A stretch of DNA of 64,000 bases from Desulfobacterales bacterium (GCA_041740615.1 JBGSLR010000026.1:5165-69164); one strand, 5' to 3'. Shown: positions 13,932 through 58,080, numbered from the stretch's first letter. Notes: generated by a model from the sequence alone, not told the origin. Program-made: numbers and translations.

Positions 13932-15062
13932 ATGTGTCGTTTATTTGCCATTACGAGCGAAGAGCCTTTATCGCCGATGGTTGCCATTGAAGCGCTTGAT
14001 GTGATGCGGGAGGGCCACGACGGCTCCGGAGTCGGGCTGTTCTTGAGAAACCTTGGCGGACCGTTTGAAGAAATGAAAGATGCGCCTATTCTGTCCGGCA
14101 TTTTCACCCACGAGGGGATCAAGCGTCTGGACAACTATATGATGAACCTTGGTTTCATGACCAAATACAAGATATCCTTCAAGTTGCCGAAAACACCCGC
14201 TGCCGGCGTTCCCAAGCGCGATGTCTATCTCGTCAGGGCGTACGAGTATCCGTCTGACTGGGAAGGGCTCGATTTCAAGCAGTTGGGTGAAAAATTGATG
14301 ATGGTGCGGCTTGAGCTGCGGAATATGGGTCTTGAGAAACAGGATATGATTGTTTTTTCCTTCTGGCCGGATGTCATCATGATCAAGGAAATCGGGGACC
14401 CCTTGACCGTGGGGCGATACATGCACTTTGATCGGGAAGACCTGCGGGCGCGTATCATCATGGCCCAAGGTCGGCAGAACACCAATTACGCCATCAATCT
14501 GTATGCCTGCCATCCCTTTTTCGTGGAGGGGTTTTCCACCATGACCAACGGGGAAAATACCGCCTTTGTGCCCATCAGGGAATACCTGATGTCCAGAGGC
14601 TTTCCGGGCTACACCGGGTTTCAGTCCGATTCGGAAGTCTTTACCCATATTCTGCATTATACGATATCAAAACTGGGTCTTCCGCTGGAGGCTTACAAGC
14701 ATATCGTTACGCCACTCCAGGACGATGATTTACAGCGGCATCCGGATGCCCTGGTGCTGAAACAATTGAAACAGAGCTGCCGCCGGTTGATCATCGACGG
14801 GCCCAATTGCGTGATCGGTAGTTTGCCGGACCACACGCTATTCATGTTGCAGGACCGCAAGAAATTGCGTCCCGGCGTCGTGGGCGGTCGGGCGGGCCGG
14901 TATGCATTTTCTTCGGAGATCTGCGGCCTTGACGCCGTGATTCCGGATCGCGACAAAAGCAAAGATTTTCAACCCATGCATCTGGACACCGTTATGGTGG
15001 GTCCGGATTGTCAGGAGGTTTCCATATGCCGTCAGACAGACCGATTACTCCATCTACACTAA
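13932..15062 (+). CDS. glutamate synthase subunit, class-II glutamine amidotransferase (Ntn) domain
   Basis: Starts MCRLFAIT..., with the catalytic Cys at position 2. There is a strong RBS AGGAGGG. It is homologous to the GltB N-terminal domain and to the archaeal-type separate subunit. Confidence 0.8.
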   Translation: MCRLFAITSEEPLSPMVAIEALDVMREGHDGSGVGLFLRNLGGPFEEMKDAPILSGIFTHEGIKRLDNYMMNLGFMTKYKISFKLPKTPAAGVPKRDVYLVRAYEYPSDWEGLDFKQLGEKLMMVRLELRNMGLEKQDMIVFSFWPDVIMIKEIGDPLTVGRYMHFDREDLRARIIMAQGRQNTNYAINLYACHPFFVEGFSTMTNGENTAFVPIREYLMSRGFPGYTGFQSDSEVFTHILHYTISKLGLPLEAYKHIVTPLQDDDLQRHPDALVLKQLKQSCRRLIIDGPNCVIGSLPDHTLFMLQDRKKLRPGVVGGRAGRYAFSSEICGLDAVIPDRDKSKDFQPMHLDTVMVGPDCQEVSICRQTDRLLHLH

Positions 15063-16660: not shown

Positions 16661-16727
16661 TGATAACGATAAAGGTCGATAGACTGAAGACTGACGGCGG
16701 ACCGCCAACGGTTTTTCGGAGATAGAT

Positions 16728-40955: not shown

Positions 40956-41117
40956 ATTCTCCTCCTGACGGCTGGTATTCATTGATTCAGGTCAACCGGC
41001 ATTCAAGGCGAGCCGAAAATCGGCAAAACAAAAGTGTCGACGCAGACGGCGCGATCCGCGTTTGAATGCGAATGGGAACGTATCACAACAAAACGGTCAC
41101 TCGTCGATCCGGTGAGA

Positions 41118-41576
41118 TTATTCTTCTCCGGTCGAATCCCGCAGAATCTCCCGGGGGGTCTTCATGAACTTTTTGGACTGCGCCAAGCGGATTTTTTCCT
41201 CCAGACGCATCCGTTTTTCATAGGCTTCTTCCGCCTTCCGTATCAGTTCTTGGATGTCTGCCGGTTTGGTCAGGTAGTCGGTTGCACCGGATTTCAATCC
41301 ATCGATGGCGGATTCCACGGTGGCGTGGCCGGTCAGCATGATGACTTCCACGAGGGGAAACTGGCTTTTGATTTCCTTCAACACCGTATTCCCGCTTTTC
41401 CCAGGCATCTTGACATCGAGGATGACCACATGAACCAGTTGGCTGTTCAGCTGATTCATGGCTTCATCACCGTTGGTGGCCGTAATGACGTGATAGCCTT
41501 TCTTTTCCAGTAATTTTTGCGTTGTCGCGAGGAATCGCTCTTCATCATCGACAAGCATCAGTTTCATCTTGCTCAT
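41118..41576 (-). CDS. single-domain CheY-like response regulator with a C-terminal charged helix
   Basis: LMLVDDEERF..., D54-like LDVKMPG, LTGHA..., and a tail EEAYEKRMRLEEKIRLAQ. It is a paralog of the receiver at 52653..53084. Confidence 0.85.
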   Translation of the reverse strand: MSKMKLMLVDDEERFLATTQKLLEKKGYHVITATNGDEAMNQLNSQLVHVVILDVKMPGKSGNTVLKEIKSQFPLVEVIMLTGHATVESAIDGLKSGATDYLTKPADIQELIRKAEEAYEKRMRLEEKIRLAQSKKFMKTPREILRDSTGEE

Positions 41577-41665
41577 TCCTTCGTTCTCCGTGGTTGAGTG
41601 TTTATAAAGTCTTTGGAATGTTTCGGCGCCGATTCCAAGTTATCTTCTTCTGCCCGTAGTAGGGA

Positions 41666-41680
41666 GCAACCTTCATGCCA
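41666..41680 (-). promoter_or_regulatory. sigma-54 promoter in the histidine kinase / response regulator intergenic region
   Basis: The minus strand reads TGGCAT-GAAGG-TTGCT, about 78 nt before the response regulator ATG at 41576. Confidence 0.5.
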
Positions 41681-41816
41681 AGCCGGGACGTGTCATCATC
41701 ATTGGATAGTATGATAAATTTATAGGTATTTCCGGCGGGGTCCGATGTGATCGGCACCGCCGAGACAGGTTGCCTGTCGAGATTTTTTACAGGATGAAAA
41801 AAAACTAACGATCATG

Positions 41817-43562: not shown

Positions 43563-45056
43563 TCAGTCGGATGGTTCCGAGCTGTTATCCTTATGCCCGG
43601 TGGTGCCTTTCCATCGGGATGTTCGATTTTCGTGAATCTCATATATCGTTCCGCCGACACCGTCCGGCACTTCTTCTATCTTCCAGTATGTATCGCGGAC
43701 AGCCTTCAACGGCTCCACGATTTTGGAGAAGGCGATTTTCATCTCGTCGAGACAAGCGACCATTTCCTGCTTGTCGATCACGCCGGAATCCAGAAATTCC
43801 CGTAGCTGAGAAATATTGAGGGACATGACCATCAACGGTGTGTTGATTTGATCGCTCAACCCGCCGGCCATCTTTTTGACGGATTCCAGTTTCTGCATCT
43901 CCAATGTCTGGGTGACATTATGGACGATGCCGTGATAGGAAAAAATGCGCCCCGTCATATCCCTTTCGGCGACGACGGTAATCACCACATCGATTCGTTT
44001 CCCATCGCCAATCCGCCATTTGGCCACCTGCTGGGTGCATCCCCTAGCCGTCTCGCAGTTTTTCAGGAGCAGATCTCTTTGTTTCGGATTGACATAAAAA
44101 TCCAGGATCTTCTTTTTTCGGAAGCCTTCCTCCAAGCCGAGCAATTTGACGCCGGCGGGATTGAGATCCAAAAAGTTACCTTCGTAATCAACCCGGTAGA
44201 TCATGTCCGTACTGTTGTGGATGATACTTGCCAGTTTCGTCCTTTCCGCTCCCAGTTCAAATTCACGCTTTTTCTGTTCGGTGGTGTCCACGATGGTATG
44301 ATCGATCCGGCGGGGCATGCCGTGACCTCGTTCCACGAACAGGACATTCCCGGTATCCCGAACCCATTTGGGCGTTTTGTCCTTGCCGATCACGATGTAT
44401 TCCATGCTTTCGTTTTCAAGAACATCCGGAAATGCCATGTAAAATGCGGTCACTCGTTCCAGATATTCCGGATGGACGAAGTCGAACCAATGCCTTCTGC
44501 CGCTTTTGATATCCTTCACCGAACAGCCGATCATGGCCTCCACATGGCGATTGACCGACAAGATGTCTCTGCAATCATAGGGAGCAAATGAGAGAAGAAC
44601 GCTTTCCGTATCGTCCAGAAGGCTTTTCATGCGACGGTTTTCACGTTGAAGCGTTTGAAAACGTTCCAGATGCACGGTGATATCCGTTATGCAGCAGCAG
44701 AGACCCCGGGATTTCGAACAGACCCCTTGGAGGTGGATGGGCATGGTCTTCATCACCACATCCCGGCCGGCGTTTTTACTCCTGTGAATGCGAAAAACCA
44801 CCTCGTCTCCCGTTGTCTCCTGGATCTTTTGGAGATAGGATGCGATCCGGGGGCGGTCCAGGTCGGCAATGAGATCCAGAAACAAATGACCGATCATTTC
44901 TCCCCGGTTTTTTCCGGCGATATCACACAGTGCTCCATTGGCGTAAATGACCATGCCCTCCGAGAGTATGGCGATCCCTTGGCTGATGCTCGACAAAACC
45001 TGTCGATACGGTACGGGATTGGTTTCGGCGACACACGTTTCAGAGGGTTTATTCAT
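43563..45056 (-). CDS. PAS-PAS protein ending in a degenerate DHp-like helix pair (no phospho-acceptor His, no ATPase domain)
   Basis: At least two PAS folds. The C-terminal GLSDQINTPLMVMSLNISQL aligns to the H-box [10 protein letters not shown] with His replaced by Asp, and the protein then ends. The start was moved to the ATG at 45056, because a sigma-54 promoter lies inside the longer ORF. Confidence 0.6.
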   Translation of the reverse strand: MNKPSETCVAETNPVPYRQVLSSISQGIAILSEGMVIYANGALCDIAGKNRGEMIGHLFLDLIADLDRPRIASYLQKIQETTGDEVVFRIHRSKNAGRDVVMKTMPIHLQGVCSKSRGLCCCITDITVHLERFQTLQRENRRMKSLLDDTESVLLSFAPYDCRDILSVNRHVEAMIGCSVKDIKSGRRHWFDFVHPEYLERVTAFYMAFPDVLENESMEYIVIGKDKTPKWVRDTGNVLFVERGHGMPRRIDHTIVDTTEQKKREFELGAERTKLASIIHNSTDMIYRVDYEGNFLDLNPAGVKLLGLEEGFRKKKILDFYVNPKQRDLLLKNCETARGCTQQVAKWRIGDGKRIDVVITVVAERDMTGRIFSYHGIVHNVTQTLEMQKLESVKKMAGGLSDQINTPLMVMSLNISQLREFLDSGVIDKQEMVACLDEMKIAFSKIVEPLKAVRDTYWKIEEVPDGVGGTIYEIHENRTSRWKGTTGHKDNSSEPSD

Positions 45057-45165
45057 CGCTTTTCGCTTGCGCTTCCTTTCATGGATTGTATCCGCTGCCA
45101 CCGGAATCGATGCGTCCCTCAACCGTTGTGGAAGCTCGGATTCTCGGTATTGAACTATTCGAAAA

Positions 45166-45180
45166 GCAACCCCTGTGCCA
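45166..45180 (-). promoter_or_regulatory. sigma-54 promoter (perfect TGGCAC-N5-TTGC) for the PAS / Cache-kinase / response-regulator operon
   Basis: The minus strand reads TGGCAC-AGGGG-TTGCT. Confidence 0.55.
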
Positions 45181-45244
45181 ATATGATTCACCGGCCCAAA
45201 TCAGTTGCGTTAGAGGTGTTGATTTATAAGATCCTGTAGATCAA

Positions 45245-45260
45245 AAGGCATGATATTTGC
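45245..45260 (+). promoter_or_regulatory. sigma-54 promoter for the divergent tandem-Usp gene
   Basis: AGGCAT-GATAT-TTGCT, about 80 nt upstream of the ATG at 45352. Confidence 0.4.
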
Positions 45261-45351
45261 TGTGCATAGGGGGAGAAAGGGTCGAAGTCGAGACGCATTG
45301 ATCCGCCATGTTTTTATTTCGATGCAGTGAAAACCGAATGAGGGGGAATTT

Positions 45352-46284
45352 ATGAAAAAACAGGGAAGCATATTGGTGGCCATCGACGGTTCCATGCAAT
45401 CCATTCATGCGGCAAAGTACATCAGCAGAATCTGCTCGTTGAAAAAACCTCGCATCGTGTTGATGCATGTTGGAAGGCCTGTGCCGGAGGCCTTCCTCGA
45501 CTTGCGCTCCACACCGGGGTTCGGCCGTCAGGTCATCAAGGCCAGCGCTTGGAACATCCAGCAGAAAAAAAATATTCAGGATTGCATGGCCAAAATTCAG
45601 GAGATTTTTTACAGGGACGGATACCCGAAAGGAAATATTGAGGTAAAGATTCAAAAACAACGCCTGGGGATTGCGAGGGATATTATACAGGAAGCCCAAA
45701 ACGACTATAACGCGGTTGTCGTGGGGCGCAGCGGCATCAGCAAGTTGAAGGATGTGTTGCTCGGGAGCATCGCCTATAAACTCGCGGATCAGATCCAACA
45801 AATTCCCATCGTGGTTGTCGGGGGCAATCCGTCGCCTGAAAAGGTACTGATCGCCTTTGACGGCTCAAAAGACGCATACCGCGGGGTGGACTGCGTGCGA
45901 AAGTTGATGGTTCAAGAGGAGCGGGAAGTGCTTCTGTGTCACGTCATCCGATCTCTGAATATCTATCTGGACGCCAATACGTTTTTCAATGAGGAGCAAG
46001 AAGACATGTGGCTGGCGAGCCGGCGTGAAGAAGTGGAAAAGGAATTCGTCAAAGCCGAGGCGCGTCTTCAAAAAGGCGGTTTCACGCCTGAACGGCTTTC
46101 TCATATCACCCTGGAGAACGAAGCATCGCGCGCCATCGCCATTCAGGACATCGCTCGTGAAAAAGGATACGGTTCCATTGTGTTGGGCCGCCGCGGGCTG
46201 ACGAGTGTGGAGGAGTTTTTGATGGGTCGCGTGAGCCGGAAAGTGCTGCACCTGGCGAAGAAACAGGCCGTATGGATCGTATGA
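45352..46284 (+). CDS. tandem universal stress protein (UspA x2)
   Basis: 310 aa with two Usp halves (VVGRSGISKLKDVLLGSIAYKL and IVLGRRGLTSVEEFLMGRVSRKV). Confidence 0.8.
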   Translation: MKKQGSILVAIDGSMQSIHAAKYISRICSLKKPRIVLMHVGRPVPEAFLDLRSTPGFGRQVIKASAWNIQQKKNIQDCMAKIQEIFYRDGYPKGNIEVKIQKQRLGIARDIIQEAQNDYNAVVVGRSGISKLKDVLLGSIAYKLADQIQQIPIVVVGGNPSPEKVLIAFDGSKDAYRGVDCVRKLMVQEEREVLLCHVIRSLNIYLDANTFFNEEQEDMWLASRREEVEKEFVKAEARLQKGGFTPERLSHITLENEASRAIAIQDIAREKGYGSIVLGRRGLTSVEEFLMGRVSRKVLHLAKKQAVWIV

Positions 46285-46305
46285 TCCGGCTTCTGTGAGG
46301 AGAAA

Positions 46306-46332
46306 GGCGGCCCATCGGTTATGATGGGCCGC
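46306..46332. terminator. hairpin between the convergent usp and response-regulator genes (candidate bidirectional terminator)
   Basis: GGCGGCCCATC, loop GGTTAT, then GATGGGCCGC. There is no strong U-tract. Confidence 0.35.
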
Positions 46333-46341
46333 TTCCATCCA

Positions 46342-46782
46342 TTAGATATTGCCGCCTCTTCTCAGCAACAGTTTGGCTTCCGCCTGGCGGATGCGCTCGT
46401 CCTGCTCATCCTTGCGTTTTCTGGCGGCCTCCAGTTTCGTGGACAGGTCCGAAAAGTCGGCCGGCTTCAGCAGATAATCAAAGGCGCCCAATTTCATGCC
46501 CTGAACCGCCGTCTCGGTGCTGCCGTGACCGGTGAGCAGGATGACTTCCACCAGTGGGAACCGCTTCTTGATTTCCTTCAGGGTGTCGATGCCGTCCATG
46601 CCCGGCATCTTGATATCCAGGATGACAACATCCACCGGCTGTTTCGACAGCAAATCCAGGCACCCCTTTCCACTGTCGGCGATTGAAACCTGTTCGCCGC
46701 TTTCCGTGAGTCGCAGGGAAAGCAATTCGGCAAAATCCTGTTCATCGTCGACGAGCAATACGCGTGTCGGTATTCTGATCAT
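46342..46782 (-). CDS. single-domain CheY-like response regulator (copy A)
   Basis: Only the 3' 441 nt of the ORF 46342..47256 is used: MIRIPTRVLLVDDE... About 85 % identical to the receiver at 48925..49365. Confidence 0.85.
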   Translation of the reverse strand: MIRIPTRVLLVDDEQDFAELLSLRLTESGEQVSIADSGKGCLDLLSKQPVDVVILDIKMPGMDGIDTLKEIKKRFPLVEVILLTGHGSTETAVQGMKLGAFDYLLKPADFSDLSTKLEAARKRKDEQDERIRQAEAKLLLRRGGNI

Positions 46783-46805
46783 TTTATCTTCTCCTTCCCT
46801 CATAT

Positions 46806-48383
46806 TTAAACCAGTCCCAGAATTTTCCACCACACGCCGGCCACGACGACCAGAATGGTGAGCAATATCGGTGTGGCCACCAGTCCCGCCTTGGTAAGAT
46901 CCGAGGCCTTGAAATACCGATAGCTGTAAGCAATGGCGTTGGGAGGACAGCCGATCACCAAAATCATGGCGAAGGACGTGGCCATGCCGAGGCACAGGGC
47001 CAGAATGGTGGGATTGACCCCTTCCAGTTGGGCCATGGGGATGACGATGGGCAGAATCAGAGCCGCCGCTGCCACATTGGCCATGACATTGGTTACCAGG
47101 GCCCCGAAAACGCCCACGCCTACGAACAGGACCAGCCATCCGCCACCCTTGATCAGCGGGAAAAAGAGGTTGGCGAAGTAATCCGCGGCGCCGGTGGAGC
47201 CCATGGCCAGGCCCATGGCCAGGCCGCCGCCGAAGATGAACAGGGCGGTGCCCCATTCCAGGTTCTCATTGATATCCTCCCATTTCAAAACGCCGAACAG
47301 CACTAACGCAGCAACCCCCAGCATACCGGTAACGGAGTAATCCAGTCCGTGAATTCCCTTGGTCAACCAGAACAGGAACGAGATGCCCGTGATGACCAGG
47401 GTTTTGATTTCCAGGTTTGTCCAGGGACCGATGCTTTCCTCGAACAGGGGCAGCTTTTTGGAAGTATCCGGTCGATAGAGCATATAGACGACGCTGATCG
47501 CCGCCGGCATGGTCAATAGGGCGGCCGGCAGGGCGTATTTGGTCCAGTTGAAAAAATCCAGCTCCATGCCGGTGTATTCCTTGAGGAAAGCGGCCGACAC
47601 CATGCAACGTCCGCCGCCGATCAGGGTTCCCATGCCGCCGCAGGAGCAGGCAAAGGCAAGGGACAACAACATGAAGCGGGCTGTGTTGGTATGGGGTTCG
47701 ATACCGGAGGCGCGCATGAGGGGCAGCATGATGGCGATGCCGATGGCGCAGGCGGCGGCATCGTGCATGACCGTGGAAGCGAGGCCGAGCCCCAGACAAA
47801 GAATAAAGGTGAAACGAGTAACGCTGGAGCCGGCCTTCTTTACGATAAAGTAGCCCAGTCGTTTGGTCATGCCGGCCTTGTCCAGGGAGATGGCGAAGAT
47901 CAGGCAGCACATGATGAAGACCACTACCGGGTGCATATACGCCGCCCAGACATCCTTGACGTCTCCAATGCCGAAGCCCACCAGTGAAACGCCGATGCAG
48001 ATGGCTGTAATTTCGAGGGGAATGGGCTCCACCACAAACAGGAAGATCAACACTGCCAGGATGGCGAGGAACCGTTTTGCCTTGGGAGGAAGACCGTCGA
48101 CATATCCGATGGTTGTCTTTTCCAGGCGGAGTGTTTTGGCCCGATCCGTCAGAAATTGGGCAGCGTCTTCGGGCTGGCCCGGGGTTTTGATTTCAAGGAA
48201 ATATTGATTTTCGGTTTTTTTGTCGGTCTCGAAAAGTTGAAACTGTGCTTTTACATCCTCTAACAGCCGTCGATCGTTATCGCCGTTGATTTTAAACCGG
48301 GTTCCCTCCGGACGCGGCAACAACATGACAACAAGTCCAAGCAAAATGCCCACCCCAAGCTTGAATCCGTTTGATTTCCACAT
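46806..48383 (-). CDS. DASS/CitMHS-type anion transporter (copy A)
   Basis: 525 aa. About 90 % nucleotide identity to 50549..52126 over long stretches. GGAGGA lies 9 nt upstream. Confidence 0.8.
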   Translation of the reverse strand: MWKSNGFKLGVGILLGLVVMLLPRPEGTRFKINGDNDRRLLEDVKAQFQLFETDKKTENQYFLEIKTPGQPEDAAQFLTDRAKTLRLEKTTIGYVDGLPPKAKRFLAILAVLIFLFVVEPIPLEITAICIGVSLVGFGIGDVKDVWAAYMHPVVVFIMCCLIFAISLDKAGMTKRLGYFIVKKAGSSVTRFTFILCLGLGLASTVMHDAAACAIGIAIMLPLMRASGIEPHTNTARFMLLSLAFACSCGGMGTLIGGGRCMVSAAFLKEYTGMELDFFNWTKYALPAALLTMPAAISVVYMLYRPDTSKKLPLFEESIGPWTNLEIKTLVITGISFLFWLTKGIHGLDYSVTGMLGVAALVLFGVLKWEDINENLEWGTALFIFGGGLAMGLAMGSTGAADYFANLFFPLIKGGGWLVLFVGVGVFGALVTNVMANVAAAALILPIVIPMAQLEGVNPTILALCLGMATSFAMILVIGCPPNAIAYSYRYFKASDLTKAGLVATPILLTILVVVAGVWWKILGLV

Positions 48384-48425
48384 ATGATGGTTTCCTCCAC
48401 TCTAGATTGTTTGGTTCGATATTCA

Positions 48426-48557
48426 TAGAAGTGGTTTCAAAGCCTTCAATCGGCCATGGCCGGGAAAGGTGCTCACGCGCGGACAATCCGCTGGTGTGTT
48501 GAGCGCCCGTCCCGGTAAACCGATGGGAATCGAGGGGAGGTTTTGAAACCACTTCTA
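48426..48557 (-). promoter_or_regulatory. structured 5' leader: a 16-bp perfect inverted repeat enclosing a GC-rich 100-nt core (candidate riboswitch, attenuator or ncRNA)
   Basis: TAGAAGTGGTTTCAAA (48426-41) is the reverse complement of TTTGAAACCACTTCTA (48542-57). The core contains the self-complementary GGCCATGGCC. It lies between a sigma-54 promoter and the transporter start codon. Confidence 0.5.
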
Positions 48558-48587
48558 AACAAACTGATTGCGTACGGCTCCAATCGA

Positions 48588-48602
48588 GCAACCTCCATGC
48601 CA
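48588..48602 (-). promoter_or_regulatory. sigma-54 promoter for transporter copy A and the response regulator
   Basis: The minus strand reads TGGCAT-GGAGG-TTGCT. Confidence 0.5.
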
Positions 48603-48924
48603 ACTATTTATTCCATATGTTGTCACCTAACATGGAGCAATCAGAACAAAAGCAAACAGAGACGTGGATGACTGTAAAAAAAAGAAATGGCCCCCTGTCA
48701 GAACTTTTTACAGGTTGTAAAAAACATATTCTGCTGATGGAAGAAACTGGGGGTATACGGAAGCTGCATTGGACAGAGATCGAATACGGACATATTTTTA
48801 CCACGAAGGACACAAAGAAATGTTCTTACGTTCCGGCACGGCAGAAATAACTTTGTGTTCTTCGTGATCAACGAAGCGAGTGGTGGTATACGCATCGCCA
48901 AAGGTTTTTTATCATTCGTTGGTA

Positions 48925-49365
48925 CTAAACATCTCCACTTCTTCGCATCAGCAGTTTGGCTTCGGCTTTTCGGATGCGTTCTTCCTGTTCATCCTTGCGC
49001 AGTCTTGCGGCTTCGAGTTTTGTCGACAAATCCGAAAAGTCCGCCGGTTTCAGGAGGTAATCAAAGGCGCCGAGCTTCATTCCCTGAACCGCCGTCTCGG
49101 TGCTGCCGTGCCCGGTGAGCAGAATGACTTCAACCAGCGGGAACTGCTTTTTGATTTCTTTCAGGGTGTCGATGCCGTCCATGCCCGGCATCTTGATATC
49201 CAGGAGGACCACATCCACCAGCTTTTCTGTCAGCCGGTCCAGGCATTCCTTTCCGCTGTGGGCGGTCAATACCTGCTCGCCGCTATCCGTGAGCCGCAGG
49301 GACATGATTTCAACAAAATCCGTTTCGTCATCGACGAGCAAAACGCGTGTGGGTATTCTGATCAT
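48925..49365 (-). CDS. single-domain CheY-like response regulator (copy B)
   Basis: 146 aa. Paralog of 46342..46782. Confidence 0.85.
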   Translation of the reverse strand: MIRIPTRVLLVDDETDFVEIMSLRLTDSGEQVLTAHSGKECLDRLTEKLVDVVLLDIKMPGMDGIDTLKEIKKQFPLVEVILLTGHGSTETAVQGMKLGAFDYLLKPADFSDLSTKLEAARLRKDEQEERIRKAEAKLLMRRSGDV

Positions 49366-49413
49366 ATCGTATTCTCCTTACCTTTCTGGTACAGAAATTC
49401 GTTCCATCGTAAC

Positions 49414-50544
49414 TCATCCATCTCGCCGGTTGGGGATGCTCACCGAAAAGCAGGCTCCTTTTCCGATGCCGCTTTCCAGCCGAATGTTTCCCTGCAGGCG
49501 TTGCACAATGCCCCGCACGATAAAAAGGCCGAGGCCCGTCCCCTTTCCCGGGGGCTTGGTGGTGAAAAAGGGTTCGAATATTTTTTCCTGATGTTCTTTG
49601 GGGATGCCGCCGCCGGTATCCGAGATCCGAAACAGAATTTGTTGTCCTTCTTCCTGGACCTGTACGGTGACAACGGCGTTTTCTTCACTGGCATGGACGG
49701 CGTTGGTCAACAGGTTGAGGAGCACCTGTCTCAATTGAAACGGATCGCTCCAGAAGATTTTCAGATGATCGGGAAGGTTGGTGGCGATCCGGATGTGTTT
49801 GACGGCCGTCTCCTTTTCCACCAGTCGGATGATATCCGCAATGAATTCGGAAAGGTCGATTTCCGACAGGGAAAGGGGTGTTTCCCGAACCACCCCCAAA
49901 AGCTGGTGGGTGATCCGGCGTGCCCGGTCCACGGCCGTTTCAATTTTTTCAAGGGCTTTTTCAATGTCGGCTTTGCGTTCGATTCCGCCTTCCCTGCTTT
50001 TACCGAGGATCTGGCGCATCCAACCCGCTGCTTCGTTGATGATCGCAAGGGGGTTGTTGATTTCATGGGCAATACCGGCCGCGAGGGTTCCCAGGGATGC
50101 CAGACGCTTGTTGGCGATGATCTGACGTTCCATGGCTTCCCGCAGTTCCGCTTCCCGCAGTTTATCCTTTTCCCGTTGGATCTTGTCATGCGCCTGGATG
50201 ATCTTGCTTTCCAGATGATCGATCTCGACGGGCTTGGTCAGATAGTCGAAAGCGCCGGCCTTGATGCCGTCGACACCGTCCTGGGGGGATGCATGACCGG
50301 TCAGGAGGATGGTCTCGATCTTCGGAAAACGCTCCCGAATGCGTCCCAGTAGATCGAGACCGCTCATCCCCGGCATTTTGACATCCGACACCACGACATC
50401 CACGGGCTGTTTTTCCAGGATGTCCAGGCCGGCGGCGCCGCTGGTGGCCAGGAGCGCCTCCATACCTCTCTTTTTCAGTCGTTTGGCGATGGCCTCGATA
50501 AAATAGAGTTCATCGTCCACGAGCAGCAGGCGAATGGGTTCCAC
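49414..50544 (-). CDS. hybrid histidine kinase: N-terminal receiver followed by HisKA + HATPase_c, with no sensor domain
   Basis: Receiver (LLVDDE..DVKMPG..LTGHA), H-box [11 protein letters not shown] and G boxes. It starts 4 nt after the stop of transporter B. Confidence 0.85.
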   Translation of the reverse strand: MEPIRLLLVDDELYFIEAIAKRLKKRGMEALLATSGAAGLDILEKQPVDVVVSDVKMPGMSGLDLLGRIRERFPKIETILLTGHASPQDGVDGIKAGAFDYLTKPVEIDHLESKIIQAHDKIQREKDKLREAELREAMERQIIANKRLASLGTLAAGIAHEINNPLAIINEAAGWMRQILGKSREGGIERKADIEKALEKIETAVDRARRITHQLLGVVRETPLSLSEIDLSEFIADIIRLVEKETAVKHIRIATNLPDHLKIFWSDPFQLRQVLLNLLTNAVHASEENAVVTVQVQEEGQQILFRISDTGGGIPKEHQEKIFEPFFTTKPPGKGTGLGLFIVRGIVQRLQGNIRLESGIGKGACFSVSIPNRRDG

Positions 50545-50548
50545 GTTT

Positions 50549-52126
50549 TTACACCAGTCCTAATATTTTCCACCATATTCCGGCGACGGCCACGAGAATT
50601 GTCAGCAATATCGGTGTCGCAACCAAACCGGCTTTTGTCAAGTCCGAAGCTTTGAAATACCGATAACTATAGGCGATTGCGTTGGGCGGGCAGCCGATCA
50701 CCAGCAGCATGGCAAAGGAGGTGGCCATTCCCAGACACAGGGCCAGAATGGTGGGATTGACCCCTTCCAGTTGGGCCATGGGGATGACGATGGGCAGAAT
50801 CAAGGCCGCCGCGGCCACGTTGGCCATGACATTGGTCACTAGTGCGCCGAAGACGCCCACGCCCACGAACAGGACCAGCCAGCCGCCGCCTTTGATCAGC
50901 GGGAAAAAGAGGTTGGCGAAATAACCCGCCGCCCCGGTGGAGCCCATGGCCAGTCCCAAGGCCAGCCCCCCTCCGAAGATAAACAAGGCCGTGCCCCATT
51001 CCAGGTTTTCGTTGATGTCCTCCCATTTCAAGACGCCGAACAATACCAATGCGGCGACTCCCAGCATGCCGGGCACGGAATAGTCCAGGCCGTGAATTCC
51101 CTTGGTCAACCAGAACAGGAAAGTGATGCCGGTGATGACCATGGTTTTGATTTCCACTGACGTCCAGGGACCGATGCTTTCATCGAATTCAGGTAATTTT
51201 ATAGCGGGATCCGGCCGGAAGAGAAGATATACCACGCCCACGGCCGCCGGCATGGTCAACAGGGCGGCCGGCATGGCGTATTTGGACCAGCTGAAAAAAT
51301 CCAGTTCCATACCCGTGAATTCCTTTAAAAAAGCAGCTGACACCATGCAGCGGCCGCCGCCGATGAGGGTGCCCATGCCCCCGCAGGAACAGGCGAAAGC
51401 AAGGGAGAGCAGCATGAAACGGGCCGTATTGGTGTTGGGTTCGATGCCGGAGGCGCGCATGAGGGGCAGCATGATGGCGATGCCGATGGCGCAGGCGGCG
51501 GCGTCGTGCATCACCATGGAGCCCGTTCCCAGACCCAGGGCCAGAACAAATGTGAAACGGGTGACATTGGTGCCGGCCTTACGGACGATAAAGTATCCCA
51601 GTCGTTTGGTCATGCCGGCCTTGTCCAGGGAGATGGCGAAGATCAGGCAGCACATGATGAAGACCACCACCGGATGCATATAAGCCGCCCAGACATCCTT
51701 GACGTCGCCGATGCCGAAGCCCACCAGGGCAACACCGATGCAGATGGCTGTAATTTCAAGGGGGATGGGCTCCACCACGAACAGGACGACCAGCACGGCC
51801 AGGATGGCCAGAAACCGTTTGGCCTTTGGCGGCAGTCCATCCACATAGCCGACGGTTACCTGCTCCAACCCCAGGGATTTCGCCCGATCCTGTAGAAACC
51901 GGGCGTTATTATCCGGTTGGTCCGGGATTTTGATTTCAAGAGTATAGCCGGTCTCGGACTTTTTTTCAGAGGCGGCAAGTTGGAACTGCGCGCCAACATC
52001 CGCCAAGAGCAGGCGTCCCGGATCTCCGCTGATGGTGAATTGGGTCCCTTCCGGACGCGGCAGCAGCATGATGACAACGCCCAGCAGAATCGCTACACCA
52101 AGTTTAAAACCTTTTGATTGCAACAT
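50549..52126 (-). CDS. DASS/CitMHS-type anion transporter (copy B)
   Basis: Trimmed to MLQSKGFKLGV (ATG at 52126), with an RBS AAGGAG. At 525 aa it is the same length as copy A. Confidence 0.8.
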   Translation of the reverse strand: MLQSKGFKLGVAILLGVVIMLLPRPEGTQFTISGDPGRLLLADVGAQFQLAASEKKSETGYTLEIKIPDQPDNNARFLQDRAKSLGLEQVTVGYVDGLPPKAKRFLAILAVLVVLFVVEPIPLEITAICIGVALVGFGIGDVKDVWAAYMHPVVVFIMCCLIFAISLDKAGMTKRLGYFIVRKAGTNVTRFTFVLALGLGTGSMVMHDAAACAIGIAIMLPLMRASGIEPNTNTARFMLLSLAFACSCGGMGTLIGGGRCMVSAAFLKEFTGMELDFFSWSKYAMPAALLTMPAAVGVVYLLFRPDPAIKLPEFDESIGPWTSVEIKTMVITGITFLFWLTKGIHGLDYSVPGMLGVAALVLFGVLKWEDINENLEWGTALFIFGGGLALGLAMGSTGAAGYFANLFFPLIKGGGWLVLFVGVGVFGALVTNVMANVAAAALILPIVIPMAQLEGVNPTILALCLGMATSFAMLLVIGCPPNAIAYSYRYFKASDLTKAGLVATPILLTILVAVAGIWWKILGLV

Positions 52127-52233
52127 CTTATAATCTCCTTTTCCACGGACGACAGGCCTTCCGCAGCGCAAACGGGTACCCTTTCGGGCGGAACAGCATT
52201 CGCCGGCATTACATCCGATTGCCGGATTCCGTG

Positions 52234-52641
52234 TTAATCATTGCGCTGTCGCGCCTGATATGCCTTTTTAATTTTCGTCAACAGTTCTTCCAGTTCACAG
52301 GGCTTGGTCAGGTAGTCAAAGGCGCCGCAACTCATCCCTTCCTTCGCTGCGGCGGCGGATCCATGACCGGTGAGCATGATCACTTCCATGAGCGGGTCCA
52401 TTTTCTTGAAGATGCGCAGGACATCGAGGCCGTTCATGTCCTCCATTTTCAGGTCGAGAACCGCCACGTCGAAATCCTGGTGCCGCATGGTCTGGATGGC
52501 TTCGGTGCCGCCATAGGCTTTCACCACCTGAAATCCCCTCTTGGTGAGGCGGTTGGCCAGCACATTGGCGTAGCCCTCCTCATCATCCACCAAAAGGATT
52601 CGAGCCGCCCCTTGAACCGGCGTTTTGCTTTGAGCTGTCAT
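52234..52641 (-). CDS. single-domain response regulator receiver
   Basis: ILLVDDE, LDLKMEDMNG, LTGHG. Confidence 0.85.
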   Translation of the reverse strand: MTAQSKTPVQGAARILLVDDEEGYANVLANRLTKRGFQVVKAYGGTEAIQTMRHQDFDVAVLDLKMEDMNGLDVLRIFKKMDPLMEVIMLTGHGSAAAAKEGMSCGAFDYLTKPCELEELLTKIKKAYQARQRND

Positions 52642-52652
52642 GGTCCAGGCCC

Positions 52653-53084
52653 TTATGCCATCCGTTGGGTGATTTCTTTCATTCGCGCCTCGATGATTTT
52701 GATTTCGTGCTTTCGTTTTTTATCCGCGGCTTCCGTCACCTTGGACAGCAGGATATCCATATCGCAGGGCTTCATGAGATAATCAAAGGCGCCCAGCTTC
52801 ATCCCTTCGATGGCGGATTCGACGGTGGCGTGACCGGTCAGCATGATGACTTCCAGCAACGGATGTCGCCTCTTGATTTCCATCAGGGTTTCGATGCCGT
52901 CCATGCCCGGCATCTTGACGTCCAGAATGATGACCTCGATGGTGTTATTTTTGTCCAGCAACGCCAGAGCGTCATTCCCGTTCAGGGAGGTTTCGACTTC
53001 CAGCTCCCGTTTGGTGAGACGTTTTTGCATGGCCGCCACGAATGGCGCCTCATCATCCACCAGTAAAACCGTTGCAAGTTTCAT
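52653..53084 (-). CDS. single-domain CheY-like response regulator with a C-terminal charged helix
   Basis: Paralog of 41118..41576. Confidence 0.85.
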   Translation of the reverse strand: MKLATVLLVDDEAPFVAAMQKRLTKRELEVETSLNGNDALALLDKNNTIEVIILDVKMPGMDGIETLMEIKRRHPLLEVIMLTGHATVESAIEGMKLGAFDYLMKPCDMDILLSKVTEAADKKRKHEIKIIEARMKEITQRMA

Positions 53085-53143
53085 GTACGCTTTCTCCTTT
53101 CTTATAGAAATGATCCAAACGATATTTCAAAAAGCCTTTCCGG

Positions 53144-54907
53144 TCATTCCAGCGACAAGGTCGCCTCCTCGGTTTTTACCGATGGCGCGGTCGCTGGGCG
53201 TTCACTCTGGGCCATATTGGCGATGGGCAATTTGATCCGGAAGCGTGTGCCGATGCCGACAGCGCTGTTGACCGTGATGTCGCCCCCCATTTTCTGGACA
53301 ATGCCGAAGCAGATGGACAACCCCAGACCGGTTCCCTTTCCCACCGGTTTGGTGGTGAAAAACGGGTCGAAAATTCTGGGCAGTATGGATTCCGGGATTC
53401 CCGGTCCGTTGTCGGCGATATCGATAAAGACCTGATCCTGGGATTGCTTGCTGGTGATATCGATGATGCCGCCCTTTTTTTCCATGACGTAGAGGGCGTT
53501 GTTGATCAGATTCAGCAATACCTGCTGCATTTCGGAAGGAGAAATGTTCATCCGCGGGATGTCCTGTTGCAGGTGGGTCCGGATATCCACACTGTTGTAT
53601 TTGGCCATTTGGGAACTGAGCGCCACGATTTCGACGATCAGGTCGTTGATTTGAACATCCTTGGTCTGGCTGTCGGTCTTGCGGGCGAAACTGAGCAGTT
53701 TATGGGTGATGTCCTTGCAGCGTTTTCCCTGGGTATGAATCTGCTTGAGGGATTTTTTAAATTCCGCAAGGTTATTGGTTTCCCGGAGATCTTCTTCTTC
53801 CAACAGATCGCCGATCCAGCCGGCTTCCTCCACCATGATGGCCACCGGATTATTGATTTCATGAGCGATGCCGGCGGCCAGCTCTCCCAGGGACGCCAAT
53901 TTTCCCGTTTCCACCACTTGCTGTTGCATCATCTCATTCTTCTTGTCGGCTGAACGGATGATGCGCACAATCCGCCGGGAAAGGATCAAGGCCATGAATA
54001 GAATGGCGCAGGCGCCCAACAGGAAGATGACGGCGGCGATTTTTTCCGTGCGGTCGAGATCGGAGAAGGCATCGGCGGCATCCTGTTGGAAAACCAGCAG
54101 CCAATCGTTGTTTTTCAGAAAAGCGGTGACGTATATGTGTCTTCGACCTTCTTCTTCCGCATTCCGGAACATGTGAATTTCTTTTTCATCCTGATTGGAA
54201 GCTTTCAACAGGTATTCGATTTTCGGAGGGGTGACATCGAAGGAAGGTTTGGTTTGGAGCTGGCCGTCTTTGTTGATCAGAAAGGCAATTCCGGTGCGAC
54301 CGACCCGCAGATTTTCCACCAGGGAATTGAAGGCCGTGAAATCGATGGTGGCCCTCAGAATCCAATACCTTCCCCCATAGGTATGCCGGACCGCAATGAT
54401 AAAATGAGGGTGGCCGCGCAGGCCCAGAAAAACATCACTGATGTAATAGCTGCTTTTAATCGCTTCATGAAACCAGTCCGCATCCGCATAACGCGCCTGG
54501 GACAGGTTGAAGGGGCCGGCATAGGCCATTTGAATCCCCTCGTCATTGATGAGACCCAAATCCGTGAAGACGAGACCGTATTCCCGTTTCAGCAGATTCA
54601 ACTTTTCCTGGAGAAAGGGTTCATTGATCAACTCTTCCAGGCTGCGGTTGGCCGAAAGAAATCGTAAATTGCTCAAGCGTTCCTTCAGAAAGGCATCGAT
54701 GTTCTGTTTGTGCTTCATCACGACTTCCACCAGATGATCATCGGTCTTTTCGATGTAGGAGTCCCGAAACTGATACAGCAGGGTAACGATGACCAGAATC
54801 ATGGGACTGAACGATACGATCATGATGGTCAGAATGATTTTGCGGGTGAGACTCTGGTAGAAATTGGCGTCCGAATGGCTGGTGGCGTAATTCATATGCG
54901 GATTCAT
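53144..54907 (-). CDS. sensor histidine kinase with a periplasmic Cache/PDC-type domain (paralog of 41817..43532)
   Basis: Same architecture. The H-box is AHEINNPVAI, and GLRGHPHFIIAV lies in the sensor domain. Confidence 0.85.
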   Translation of the reverse strand: MNPHMNYATSHSDANFYQSLTRKIILTIMIVSFSPMILVIVTLLYQFRDSYIEKTDDHLVEVVMKHKQNIDAFLKERLSNLRFLSANRSLEELINEPFLQEKLNLLKREYGLVFTDLGLINDEGIQMAYAGPFNLSQARYADADWFHEAIKSSYYISDVFLGLRGHPHFIIAVRHTYGGRYWILRATIDFTAFNSLVENLRVGRTGIAFLINKDGQLQTKPSFDVTPPKIEYLLKASNQDEKEIHMFRNAEEEGRRHIYVTAFLKNNDWLLVFQQDAADAFSDLDRTEKIAAVIFLLGACAILFMALILSRRIVRIIRSADKKNEMMQQQVVETGKLASLGELAAGIAHEINNPVAIMVEEAGWIGDLLEEEDLRETNNLAEFKKSLKQIHTQGKRCKDITHKLLSFARKTDSQTKDVQINDLIVEIVALSSQMAKYNSVDIRTHLQQDIPRMNISPSEMQQVLLNLINNALYVMEKKGGIIDITSKQSQDQVFIDIADNGPGIPESILPRIFDPFFTTKPVGKGTGLGLSICFGIVQKMGGDITVNSAVGIGTRFRIKLPIANMAQSERPATAPSVKTEEATLSLE

Positions 54908-55329
54908 CCCTGATCAAGTTCGGCGCTGCGCCGGGGCATCGTCTTCTGACGGTTGTCCCGGCGGTCGAATATCCTGGCAACGGCTTTTTTGACATTCTCA
55001 ATGCTGTTTCCGGATTTTTCGATGATGTCGTTTATGGCGACGCCTTCCAGGCCATTGGCGCTATCCGCCCCATGGGCATGCAGCACAAGGGGCAACGTCG
55101 GAATGCGTTCTTTCAGTCTTCGCAATGGAGCAAGGGTTCCATTGTCCGGCAAATCCGGATCCATGATCAGCAGGTCCGGGGATTCCGCCTTAAACGCCAG
55201 CTCGACAACCTCCTGGGCGGTTTTGGCCAGATGAATGCGGTAGCCGGCGGAGGCCAGTTCCCTTTTCAGCAGTTCCCGGACATGGGGATTCCGATCGGCG
55301 ATCAATATGGTGAATGTTTTTATTGTCAT
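54904..55329 (-). CDS. atypical receiver-domain protein
   Basis: ILIADRN...LLIMDPDLPD...LVLHAH has a receiver-like topology with a divergent active site. It overlaps the kinase gene by 4 nt. Confidence 0.65.
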   Translation of the reverse strand: MTIKTFTILIADRNPHVRELLKRELASAGYRIHLAKTAQEVVELAFKAESPDLLIMDPDLPDNGTLAPLRRLKERIPTLPLVLHAHGADSANGLEGVAINDIIEKSGNSIENVKKAVARIFDRRDNRQKTMPRRSAELDQG

Positions 55330-55444
55330 AGATGCTCTTGGTATTTTCTATGATGCGGGCGGCATCATCATGGAGAATCTCTCCGTTGCCTGATCGCTTA
55401 TTGGGTCGGGGGATATGATCCCCCTTCCGAAGGTTTCATCGCGA

Positions 55445-56248
55445 TCAGCGAATGGGTTTCATGCCTTTTTGCTTGATGACGTCTCTCCCTTTCGGCGTCA
55501 ATGCAAACTGAATGAATTTTTGGACCGCACCGGTAGGGGTCCCTTTGGTGACGAAAGAATAAATCTGATAATACGGATAACGTATGTCCTCGGGTGCGTG
55601 ACCGTTGATTTTCAAGGCCTTGACTTTCGCATGGTCTTTGGTGGTGCCGTAACCGATGAAAGAAATCATGGCCGGAGAGCGTTCCACCGCATTCAGTACG
55701 CCGGTCGATCGGTAGGCGGTGAAATCATACAGCAGCTCGCGTTGGGACATCACCTGTCGATCGAAATTCTTGTAGGCGCCGGTTTTTTCCCCCGGAATCA
55801 TTACGACGATGTTTTCATCCCGCCCCCCCAACTCTTTCCAGTTGATGATGGTTTTGTTGAATATCCCCTTTAGTTGCTCATCGGTAATATCACCCACCGG
55901 ACAGTCGACATTGACGATCACGGCCAGGGGATCGCGGCAGAATGGTATTTGCACATAGCCATATTCCCGGTGACGGTAGGAAAGATGTTCTGTGGTGCTG
56001 GCAATATCACTGAAATCACTAAGCAATCGTCGAACGGCAGCATTGGATGAGGAAACGGTTTTTTCCACGACCACACCGGTCTCCTTGGTGAACGATGCAA
56101 TAAAATCGTTGCCGAACACTTCATGCACTTGCGCCGAGCAGCTATATCGAATGGTTTCCTGAGCCGCCGCCGTGAAGATGGGAAGCAGGATGCAGAAAAT
56201 ACAGATAACGATCCGGCTATACAATCGAGTGAGCGTATTTTTTTTCAT
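55445..56248 (-). CDS. solitary PstS-like (PBP-fold) periplasmic binding protein, first gene of the long operon
   Basis: A signal peptide, and LKGIFNKTIINWKELGG, which is typical of phosphate/anion-binding PBPs. Confidence 0.65.
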   Translation of the reverse strand: MKKNTLTRLYSRIVICIFCILLPIFTAAAQETIRYSCSAQVHEVFGNDFIASFTKETGVVVEKTVSSSNAAVRRLLSDFSDIASTTEHLSYRHREYGYVQIPFCRDPLAVIVNVDCPVGDITDEQLKGIFNKTIINWKELGGRDENIVVMIPGEKTGAYKNFDRQVMSQRELLYDFTAYRSTGVLNAVERSPAMISFIGYGTTKDHAKVKALKINGHAPEDIRYPYYQIYSFVTKGTPTGAVQKFIQFALTPKGRDVIKQKGMKPIR

Positions 56249-56335
56249 GGTTCTTCTCCTGACGGAACGATTTTGTACGAGTTTTGCTTGCTATGCAGGT
56301 TAGCATGGCCGGCAATCGATTTTACATGAATATTG

Positions 56336-56350
56336 GCAATGAACATGCCA
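56336..56350 (-). promoter_or_regulatory. sigma-54 promoter for the binding-protein / response-regulator / kinase / transporter operon
   Basis: The minus strand reads TGGCAT-GTTCA-TTGCC. The sequence is a near-palindrome, and the minus-strand reading is the better match. Confidence 0.5.
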
Positions 56351-56446
56351 GGGTGTCGGTGGAACACAGTTTTTGGATAACTATCTGTTATGATGTTATT
56401 TTTATATTATATAGCTCGCCGAATTTATCCACCGTCCGGTTTCGAA

Positions 56447-56496
56447 TGTCGGTTTTTTTTACGGACATCCGTTGGGGGTGTCGGCTTTTTTTACAG
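56447..56496. repeat. two direct repeats TGTCGG-Y-T7/8-AC-RG, 32 nt apart; candidate activator (UAS) sites
   Basis: TGTCGGTTTTTTTTACGG (56447-64) and TGTCGGCTTTTTTTACAG (56479-96). A third TGTCGG lies at 56354. They sit about 100-150 nt upstream of the minus-strand sigma-54 promoter. Confidence 0.4.
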
Positions 56497-56610
56497 TGGA
56501 CAACAGCGCGCCGGCTCAATACAATGGAATGTGGATTTTTTGTCATCATTACCATGCATCCGAAATCGTTATTGCGGTGTTTTCGGATCAACCATGAAAG
56601 AAAAAAGCCC

Positions 56611-58080
56611 ATGTTTCAAAAAGTAAGCCTCCGGTTGCGACTGTTTTTATTGATAACGGCGCTGGCGTTGCTGAATCTTCTCGGTTCCCTGGGAACGGTC
56701 TGGTATACGTATCGAACGCAGAGCCTTTATGCGGCTGTACTGGATCAGGACGTGTCCGCGCTGACGGCCGCGCAGAAAATGGAAACCGAGTTGATCATGC
56801 AGAAAGGGTTGACCAGCTATTTTTTCCTGACCAACGACGAAAAATGGCTTGCACAACTGCTTGAGCGGACGCGGAATTTTAAACATTGGCTGACCGTTGC
56901 GCGGGAGATGAACAACATCGAGGAAGCCAGGGGGATCCTGAATGAAATCGAATCCCGCTTCATCCAGTATGGATTCGATCGGGATAATGTGATTGCGCTG
57001 TATAAGGGAGGTAAACGAAAAGAAGGGGAAAATCTGCACTGGAAGGTCCGTGACCAGTTTTTCGCCATTTTTGATCTGGCTGAAAAATTCAAGACGGCCC
57101 ATGAACGTCAGATTGCGGATCTGCAGAGAAAATTTCGGCGATCCAGCTCGAAAATGGCGGTATTCGCCTGGGCCGCCATCCCATGCGTACTGATTATCAG
57201 TATCCTGCTCACCGCCATCATTTTACGGCAGATCTTGAGTCCCATCCGCCGACTGGCCATGGGAAAGGAAGGCCCGAAAAGACCCATCGGCGACGAAGTC
57301 CAAGCGGTGAAAAACCGCCTGGACGATCTGGTGGAGAATATCGGGCAAACCCAGGCGAAACTGATGGAAAGTCAGGCCCATCTTATTCAGTCAGAAAAAC
57401 TTGCCATGGTGGGGAAGCTCGCGGCCGGTGTGGCGCACAGCGTCCGGAATCCATTGACTTCCGTTAAAATGAGACTGTTCACATTGGAACGCAGCCTGCA
57501 GCTGACGCCGCCCCAGAAAGAGGACCTGGATGTCATTTCCGAGGAAATCCGGCATATCGATACCATCCTCAGAAATTTTCTTGAGTATTCGCGGCCGCCC
57601 AAACTGAAAATGCACACGGCCAGTCCTTCCGATGTAGTGGATATGACCTTGCAACTGTTGCGGCATCGTTTCGATTCCTACCGCACGGAAGTCCAGGTAA
57701 TAAGAACCGGGAGATTGCCCGAGATACCCATCGATACGGATCAATTGAAAGAAGTGCTGGTCAATCTGATGGTGAATGCCTGTGAGGCCATGGGGGAAGG
57801 CGGGACAATTCAGATCCAGGAAGAAACCGGCCTGCGGGAGAATATAGGAGAAGTTGCGCTGATTGAAGTCCATGACAATGGCCCGGGAATACCGGCGGCG
57901 CTTGTGGATAAGATTTTTCAGCCTTTTTTCAGCTCCAAGGAGGAAGGTTCGGGACTGGGACTCAGCATCGCAAGGCGGATAATTGAAGAGCACGGCGGCG
58001 AAATCAACGCGAAGCCCGATGAAGGCATCGGGGCCACCTTTGTCATCTCGCTGCCCCTGAAGGAGGAGATCCATGGCTAA
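56611..58080 (+). CDS. sensor histidine kinase (two transmembrane segments, helical periplasmic sensor, HisKA + HATPase_c), partner of the sigma-54 activator
   Basis: Trimmed to MFQKVSLRLRLFLL. H-box AHSVRNPL, and G boxes DNGPGIP and GSGLGL. Confidence 0.85.
   Translation: MFQKVSLRLRLFLLITALALLNLLGSLGTVWYTYRTQSLYAAVLDQDVSALTAAQKMETELIMQKGLTSYFFLTNDEKWLAQLLERTRNFKHWLTVAREMNNIEEARGILNEIESRFIQYGFDRDNVIALYKGGKRKEGENLHWKVRDQFFAIFDLAEKFKTAHERQIADLQRKFRRSSSKMAVFAWAAIPCVLIISILLTAIILRQILSPIRRLAMGKEGPKRPIGDEVQAVKNRLDDLVENIGQTQAKLMESQAHLIQSEKLAMVGKLAAGVAHSVRNPLTSVKMRLFTLERSLQLTPPQKEDLDVISEEIRHIDTILRNFLEYSRPPKLKMHTASPSDVVDMTLQLLRHRFDSYRTEVQVIRTGRLPEIPIDTDQLKEVLVNLMVNACEAMGEGGTIQIQEETGLRENIGEVALIEVHDNGPGIPAALVDKIFQPFFSSKEEGSGLGLSIARRIIEEHGGEINAKPDEGIGATFVISLPLKEEIHG

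Follow-up and report, generated by a model that had tools for sequence, protein, structure and literature searches.

The 64,000-nt stretch of Desulfobacterales bacterium DNA analysed here (GCA_041740615.1, JBGSLR010000026.1:5165-69164; hereafter the window) carries two tandem copies of a gene pair that encodes a putative DASS-family anion symporter (transporter, T) and a single-domain response-regulator receiver (R). In this study, sequence comparisons suggested that the copies arose through in-situ duplication of a transporter-hybrid kinase-receiver segment (T-HK-R, where HK denotes the hybrid kinase), that the downstream copy subsequently lost its kinase, that the event was old and was overlaid by gene conversion, and that the downstream copy now forms an independent sigma-54 unit. 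A probability of roughly 0.78 is assigned to this reading as a whole.

All genes of both copies lie on the minus strand and are described here from high to low coordinates. Copy B, which occupies the ancestral position, contains the 525-aa transporter TB (50549-52126; Pfam Na_sulph_symp and CitMHS), a 376-aa hybrid kinase with the Pfam architecture REC-HisKA-HATPase_c (49414-50544; His160 within the motif AHEINNP) and the 146-aa receiver RB (48925-49365; Response_reg, with a C-terminal helical tail). The derived copy A contains the 525-aa transporter TA (46806-48383; recognised by Pfam and TIGR00785) and the 146-aa single-domain receiver RA (46342-46782; Response_reg), separated by a 23-nt spacer (46783-46805) at the site of the missing kinase. 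The intergenic region (IGR) between RB and TA measures 541 nt. An initial annotation of the window had placed two 525-aa transporters at these positions, with a hybrid kinase in copy B only and a distance of 23 nt between the genes of copy A, and all of this was confirmed.

Similarity and relationship of the two copies

TA and TB align without indels over 525 aa and share 81.9% nucleotide and 86.9% amino acid identity; RA and RB share 83.0% and 84.4%, respectively. The estimate of about 85% protein identity for the receivers in the initial annotation was therefore accurate, and that of about 90% nucleotide identity for the transporters applies to internal stretches but not to the genes overall. 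In 60-nt windows, identity was 62-73% over the first 300 nt, 87-98% at gene positions 301-540 and 87-97% at positions 1201-1380, and exact runs of 71, 67 and 56 nt were present. The overall value nevertheless lies above the 60% below which the initial annotation had placed old paralogs. The breakpoints of identity were located 13 nt before the transporter ATGs and 18 nt before the receiver ATGs, ribosome-binding sites (RBSs) included, and at the stop codons of the receivers. The non-coding flanks of copies A and B showed no detectable homology to each other. Moreover, a search of the 541-nt IGR and of the region 3' of RA for remnants of the second REC gene, the kinase or other cluster genes returned noise (all E > 0.05), the only real match being a Usp gene on the other strand.

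The relationship between the copies was assessed against 5.8 billion proteins and against 42 related Desulfobacterales loci, namely that of Desulfobacula toluolica Tol2 and 41 from species-representative genomes, which were mapped with the window proteins. TA and TB were mutual best hits (87%), with the next-best proteins at 73-75% identity, and RA and RB were likewise mutually closest, in keeping with the tandem, same-strand duplication of transporter and receiver that had been proposed. In neighbour-joining (NJ) trees, TA and TB were sisters with a bootstrap value of 100%, both overall and with residues 1-100 or 101-475 alone, and RA and RB were sisters at 98%. For residues 476-525 alone, the support for TA plus TB was 61%. 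In every segment of the transporter, the distance between TA and TB was smaller than that to any outgroup. The first 100 codons are synonymously saturated, yet TA and TB share 66% of the encoded amino acids there, compared with at most 53% for the best outgroup. Because the nearest homologs outside this genome are at most 75% identical, the duplication appears to be lineage-specific.

The initial annotation had called the duplication recent, which the substitution rates contradict. Nei-Gojobori estimates gave dS = 0.79 and dN/dS = 0.10 for TA/TB and dS = 0.66 and dN/dS = 0.14 for RA/RB. As a rough yardstick, dS values of about 0.66-0.79 are of the order of magnitude seen between bacterial genera. 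In addition, several blocks of the transporter genes are synonymously saturated, and neither flank homology nor junction repeats survive. The similar dS values indicate that T and R were duplicated together, and the low dN/dS ratios suggest that both copies are functional and under purifying selection. A rate asymmetry between the copies, considered as a sign of neofunctionalisation, was absent, with 11 unique changes relative to the consensus in TA and 14 in TB. Judged by these comparisons, the duplication is old, lineage-specific and tandem, and it represents gene-family evolution by an ordinary mechanism within a known cluster.

Probable gene conversion between the transporter genes

The fraction of amino-acid-conserved codons with a synonymous change was determined in ten blocks along T. 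Between TA and TB, this fraction ranged from 0.14 (codons 124-170) to 0.63 (codons 479-525). The saturation level, obtained from TA or TB against 36 outgroups, was approximately 0.53-0.60 per block, with TA's own medians at 0.49-0.60. Blocks 1, 2, 5 and 10 were thus saturated, and blocks 3, 4, 6 and 9 were far lower; several blocks were as diverged synonymously as orthologs in other genera. The heterogeneity among blocks (chi2 = 42.9) was exceeded in none of 20,000 permutations, and the longest run of unchanged codons was 21 (p = 0.004). For seven ortholog pairs of similar divergence, chi2 was 2.7-17.5 (p 0.047-0.97). Two other pairs of intragenomic paralogs resembled TA/TB: a tandem pair at related locus L019 gave a chi2 of 36.5, exceeded in 0 of 3,000 permutations, and the dispersed pair L010/L015 gave 21.5 (p = 0.009). 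The mosaic was therefore specific to intragenomic paralogs, which points to gene conversion. The stretches of 87-98% identity are most likely later conversion tracts rather than a sign of youth. Concerted evolution is known from tandem duplicates such as tufA/tufB, which the mosaic of dS along T resembles.

Ancestral gene order and probable loss of the hybrid kinase

In 29 of the 42 related loci, the gene order is dCache kinase, REC, REC, DASS, hybrid kinase, REC, and two further loci break off inside the kinase. D. toluolica Tol2 has this canonical order, with genes for a kinase and a sigma-54 regulator coming next. The hybrid-kinase orthologs in the 29 loci are 380-430 aa long, are 47-58% identical and occur in several families. 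Most related genomes yielded one T locus each, and the few loci with adjacent T and R are nested in the trees within clades of canonical loci. The prevalence of T-HK-R indicates that the order of copy B is ancestral and that the kinase was lost from copy A. The initial annotation had left a choice between deletion from copy A and insertion into copy B; comparison with the orthologous loci decides for the former.

The last 18 nt of the TA-RA spacer share homology with the RBS region that precedes RB; along with the kinase gene, the loss thus took away most of the spacer between kinase and receiver. The initial annotation had proposed a check for direct repeats at the junctions of the kinase, but these did not go beyond chance: the longest word shared by the two flanks of the kinase in copy B was 6 nt, a length equalled in 69% of shuffles. 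An origin of RA by recombination between the REC domain of the kinase and RB was also considered and rejected, since RA matched RB at 78-92% of positions in each 60-nt window, compared with 35-73% for the kinase REC domain.

Regulatory elements of copy A

Sigma-54 promoters were accepted where the sequence TGGCAC-N5-TTGCW, with conserved GG and GC, was intergenic and faced a gene. An exact match, TGGCATGGAGGTTGCT (48587-48602, minus strand; -24 GG, -12 GC), is located 203 nt 5' of the TA ATG and is the predicted promoter of the TA-RA unit. The window contains four exact matches, whereas shuffled sequences predict 0.18. Approximately 100 nt 5' of the -24 element lies the palindrome CCTGTAAAAAGTTCTGACAGG (CCTGT-N11-ACAGG; 48694-48714), a candidate site for an enhancer-binding protein. 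This palindrome occurs twice in the window; the second instance (41773-41793) stands at an equal distance 5' of another exact sigma-54 site (41665-41680, minus strand), which precedes a REC gene (41118-41576, minus) and the third DASS gene of the region (39096-40982, minus; 628 aa). Apart from the -24/-12 core and the palindrome, the promoter region of copy A matched nothing else in the window. The arrangement suggests that the TA-RA and REC-DASS (39-41.6 kb) units belong to one regulon.

The 5' leader of TA is about 190 nt long. The segment 48381-48575 had a folding energy of -69.9 kcal/mol (z = -5.06), and none of 200 shuffles was equally stable. Within it, a long hairpin (48426-48557, minus strand) has 27-nt arms that are 85% complementary. 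No copy of this hairpin of about 132 nt was found elsewhere in the window or in the related loci, and an Rfam search of 45000-56000 at E <= 1 gave no credible match for the leader or the IGR. Unusual stability was not seen for the leader of L015 (a related stand-alone T-R locus) or for that of the 41.6-kb REC gene, and these units therefore do not have the hairpin in common with copy A.

A strong, terminator-like hairpin (46307-46332, minus strand; 10-bp stem with 8 G-C pairs) follows RA and closes the unit. Just 3' of RB, an inverted repeat with 21-nt arms (48797-48871, minus strand) was detected; it lacks a T-tract and was not called a canonical terminator, and it is possibly the transcript end of operon B. 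These elements support the proposal that copy A has acquired its own sigma-54 promoter and structured leader, and copy A is predicted to be a separate bicistronic unit that comprises promoter, leader, TA-RA and terminator. Furthermore, in several relatives (L012, L017, L018, L025, L026, L027 and L039) the canonical operon has an exact sigma-54 promoter before its first gene. In these relatives the ancestral type of operon is thus also a sigma-54 unit, and copy A kept the class of regulation and gained its own entry point.

Features of the encoded proteins

TA scored 236.6 bits on TIGR00785 (cut-off 198.6), and TA and TB scored 176 and 163 bits on PF00939 (cut-off 27). TA residues 107-520 aligned with VcINDY chains at E = 5e-38. 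T is thus assigned by sequence to the DASS family, with sulfate as a putative substrate. The TIGR00785 score, the alignment over residues 107-520 and the helical core predicted for TA are the points of likeness to VcINDY and the SLC13 proteins. Two features differ. In place of the two SNT hairpin-tip motifs of VcINDY, which bind substrate and Na+, stand H207-D208-A209 and A435-N436-V437; these are invariant in 57 homologs and are encoded in TA at about 47757-47765 and 47073-47081. The substrate and ion coupling of VcINDY are consequently not transferable by homology, and the binding chemistry of this DASS subgroup may differ from that of characterised DASS proteins. In addition, an AlphaFold 2 model of TA, whose moderate mean confidence (predicted local distance difference test score, 68.6) limited its use to the secondary structure of the N-terminal domain, has an additional helix at the N-terminus and, at residues 29-94 (approximately 70 residues), a small alpha/beta domain. 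Residues 1-95 (48099-48383 in TA, 51842-52126 in TB) are the fastest-evolving part of the protein (66% amino acid identity between TA and TB, at most 53% to the best outgroup).

In the 146-aa receivers, PF00072 spans residues 8-117, and there is no output domain. D12, D13, D56, T84 and K106 are present in both RA and RB. The two proteins differ at 23 positions, 14 of which fall in residues 15-49 (alpha1 to alpha2), and residues 76-120 are identical. Position 18 is A in RA and V in RB and 33 orthologs. Paralogous two-component systems become insulated after duplication through changes in the alpha-1 helix of the receiver, and the clustering of RA/RB changes in alpha1-alpha2, including A18, resembles this pattern. 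The present case differs in that only one copy has kept a kinase at the cognate position and in that the DHp helix of the hybrid kinase, which corresponds to the ortholog consensus, shows no matching changes. Covariation of the kinase DHp helix with the receiver alpha-1 helix was absent. The receiver differences are compatible with some divergence in partner choice; insulation was not demonstrated.

Transporter-receiver units in related loci

Several relatives contain comparable arrangements. L015 consists of a T-R pair on its own, 313 nt upstream of which lies an exact sigma-54 promoter, and the same metagenome-assembled genome (MAG) has the canonical locus L010 on another contig; between L015 and L010, identity is 86% for T and 88% for R. 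L042, a T-R pair, comes from the MAG that also contains canonical L030, and the R proteins of these two loci group together. MAG binning error is a caveat for both of these two-contig cases. L019 has the order T-R-HK-T-R', with sister transporters that are 85% identical, L028 has T-R-HK and L040 has T-R. All loci that reach far enough past T have R or an R-like receiver downstream, either adjacent or after HK. Taken together, the comparisons indicate that the kinase-less transporter-receiver spin-off arose more than once.

Two further observations were made among these loci. Between the hybrid kinase and the second transporter of L019 (about 4030-4130), a 14-nt unit (GGCCGGACCCATTA) is repeated in tandem in about six copies. 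In one Desulfobacula MAG, two complete canonical operons (L020 and L039) lie distant from each other on a single 4.77-Mb contig, each followed by a different pair of kinase and bacterial enhancer-binding protein (bEBP), which indicates that whole-operon duplication also occurs in this family.

Genomic surroundings

The operon of copy B is headed by a gene for a PstS-like periplasmic binding protein (PBP_like_2; 55445-56248), followed by a weak REC gene (54904-55329), a dCache-HisKA-HATPase kinase gene (53144-54907) and two REC genes (52653-53084 and 52234-52641), all on the minus strand and preceding TB. None of the 42 related loci had a counterpart of the PstS-like gene, which is preceded at a distance of 87 nt by a sigma-54 site with one mismatch (56335-56350). 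The plus strand encodes, in divergent orientation, a 598-aa kinase (56284-58080) and an NtrC-type sigma-54 activator of the bEBP class (58073-59521). Downstream of copy A are a Usp gene, a PAS-HisKA gene, a second dCache kinase gene, a REC gene and the third DASS gene, and beyond the latter lie REC-CBS, Usp and GGDEF genes.

One open reading frame (ORF) of this region (43563-45191, minus strand) encodes three PAS domains and a partial HisKA match, lacks an HATPase domain and may represent a truncated kinase. Another exact sigma-54 element (45165-45180) falls inside its annotated 5' end, so its true start is probably further downstream. Elsewhere in the window, an exact sigma-54 promoter (13813-13828, plus strand) lies 5' of an ORF without Pfam match (13932-15062), after which glutamate-synthase-like genes (15008-19055) and carbamoyl-phosphate synthase genes follow; this promoter is probably part of a nitrogen-assimilation regulon.

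Discussion

The data are best accommodated by a history in which, within the lineage of this genome, the distal part of the operon (T, HK and R) gave rise to a tandem copy immediately downstream of itself. The downstream copy would then have lost the hybrid kinase cleanly, leaving T, a 23-nt spacer with an R-type RBS, and R; later, internal tracts would have been homogenised by gene conversion, with both copies under purifying selection. In regulatory terms, TA-RA would depend for its induction on an NtrC-type activator, for which the product of 58073-59521 is the simplest candidate, and the REC-DASS unit at 39-41.6 kb would respond together with it through the common palindrome and promoter type. 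A kinase that the cluster still encodes would phosphorylate RA in trans. The outcome may be additional uptake capacity that can be induced separately yet remains linked to one and the same signalling network.

Some observations weigh against this history. With the best outside match at 75%, the order and dates of the duplication, the kinase loss and the promoter gain are not bracketed, and because the flanks lack homology, in-situ tandem duplication is deduced from adjacency and not from junctions. Gene conversion alone can create sister relationships, which leaves some room for an older duplication. Moreover, the palindrome was absent from the 42 related loci (630 kb), and the statements on promoter use, on the activator, on what phosphorylates RA and on the substrate carried are predictions. 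In an alternative reading, T-R is an old separate pair without a kinase, orthologous to stand-alone modules such as L015 and L042, and repeated conversion by the canonical copy gives it the appearance of a lineage-specific duplicate in each genome. Conversion has indeed been active both between TA and TB and between the copies of L019, T-R modules, each similar to the copy in its own genome, are present in at least three further genomes, and the support for TA plus TB falls to 61% at residues 476-525. Yet many losses would be needed to explain the single T locus of most related genomes, and the saturated N-terminal 100 codons, which were not recently converted, still place TA and TB as sisters (66% against at most 53%; bootstrap 100%). 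The IGR, leader and promoter of L015, compared by inspection rather than by direct alignment, also had no evident homology to those of copy A. Old paralogy with concerted evolution is consequently considered unlikely.

A slightly smaller likelihood is attached to acquisition of the T-R cassette from an unsampled, fairly close relative and its insertion downstream of the resident operon. Such a transfer would fit the lack of surviving junction homology, the 541-nt IGR that has no counterpart in the window except for the promoter and palindrome motifs, and the presence of such modules at unlinked sites, as in L015. However, no donor-like sequence above 75% identity was found in the protein search, the G+C content is alike in both copies (0.55-0.60), the conversion tracts imply long co-residence, and insertion next to the closest homolog in the same orientation would be a coincidence. 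Insertion of the hybrid kinase into copy B, with T-R as the ancestral state, is very improbable. Its sole support is the T-R order of a few loci (L015, L040 and L042, and L019 and L028 with T-R-HK), but these are nested inside canonical clades, and T-HK-R is present in 29 loci across several families with orthologous kinases that are 47-58% identical. Tandem duplication followed by kinase loss is therefore retained as the preferred reading.

The locus belongs to a gene cluster that has been described before. A 30.5-kb cluster of DASS, two-component and CBS genes in Desulfosarcina variabilis is conserved in the Desulfobacteraceae, and sensing of sulfate by its cache kinases has been proposed (PMC11887813). 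TOL2_19410 of D. toluolica was placed in DASS group Cii together with HRM2_38300 of Desulfobacterium autotrophicum and was detected in the membrane proteome (PMC5840216); HRM2_38300 is reported there as low-sulfate induced. Sulfate as the substrate of the orthologs is a literature inference from expression data (PMC5840216, PMC11887813). T is 73% identical to a syntenic D. toluolica gene, and gene order suggests that this ortholog is TOL2_19410, because it lies six genes before a second DASS gene (26-27% identical) that matches TOL2_19470. The region of about 34-59.5 kb in the window resembles the Desulfobacteraceae cluster in having three DASS genes, dCache kinases, many REC genes, REC-CBS, Usp and an NtrC-type regulator. 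It differs in the extra T-R unit, which lacks the hybrid kinase and stands under its own sigma-54 promoter, and in the PstS-like head of the operon. Neither this duplication nor a conserved T-R pairing is described in PMC11887813 or PMC5840216.

The recurring co-inheritance of T and R is the most interesting lead. The steady association of T with a receiver gene downstream and the repeated duplication of the two as a pair recall the pairing of amtB with glnK, where a transporter gene is combined with the gene of a small signalling protein. The likeness is an analogy in gene arrangement, and R is a CheY-like receiver and not a PII protein. The DASS transporter and its downstream receiver might form an obligate functional pair in which phosphorylated R directly gates T or reads its state, in the way of a transceptor or of GlnK-AmtB. 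This idea is tentative, and the odds are clearly against it. If true, the pairing would account for the joint duplication and retention of T and R in several independent lineages and for the fact that the intervening hybrid kinase need not be encoded in cis. The two pairs would in that case have been kept apart by divergence at two surfaces, the fast-evolving N-terminal alpha/beta domain of T and the alpha1-alpha2 face of R.

In conclusion, dissimilatory sulfate reduction in marine sediments begins with the uptake of sulfate, the tuning of which in the Desulfobacteraceae has so far only been modelled from gene clusters. At this locus, a T-HK-R core appears to have budded off a kinase-less T-R unit with separate, predicted sigma-54 control, and the tandem copies have most likely exchanged sequence through gene conversion. 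The locus may thus serve as a natural experiment on the role of the receiver for the transporter and on differences in affinity or regulation between the paralogs.

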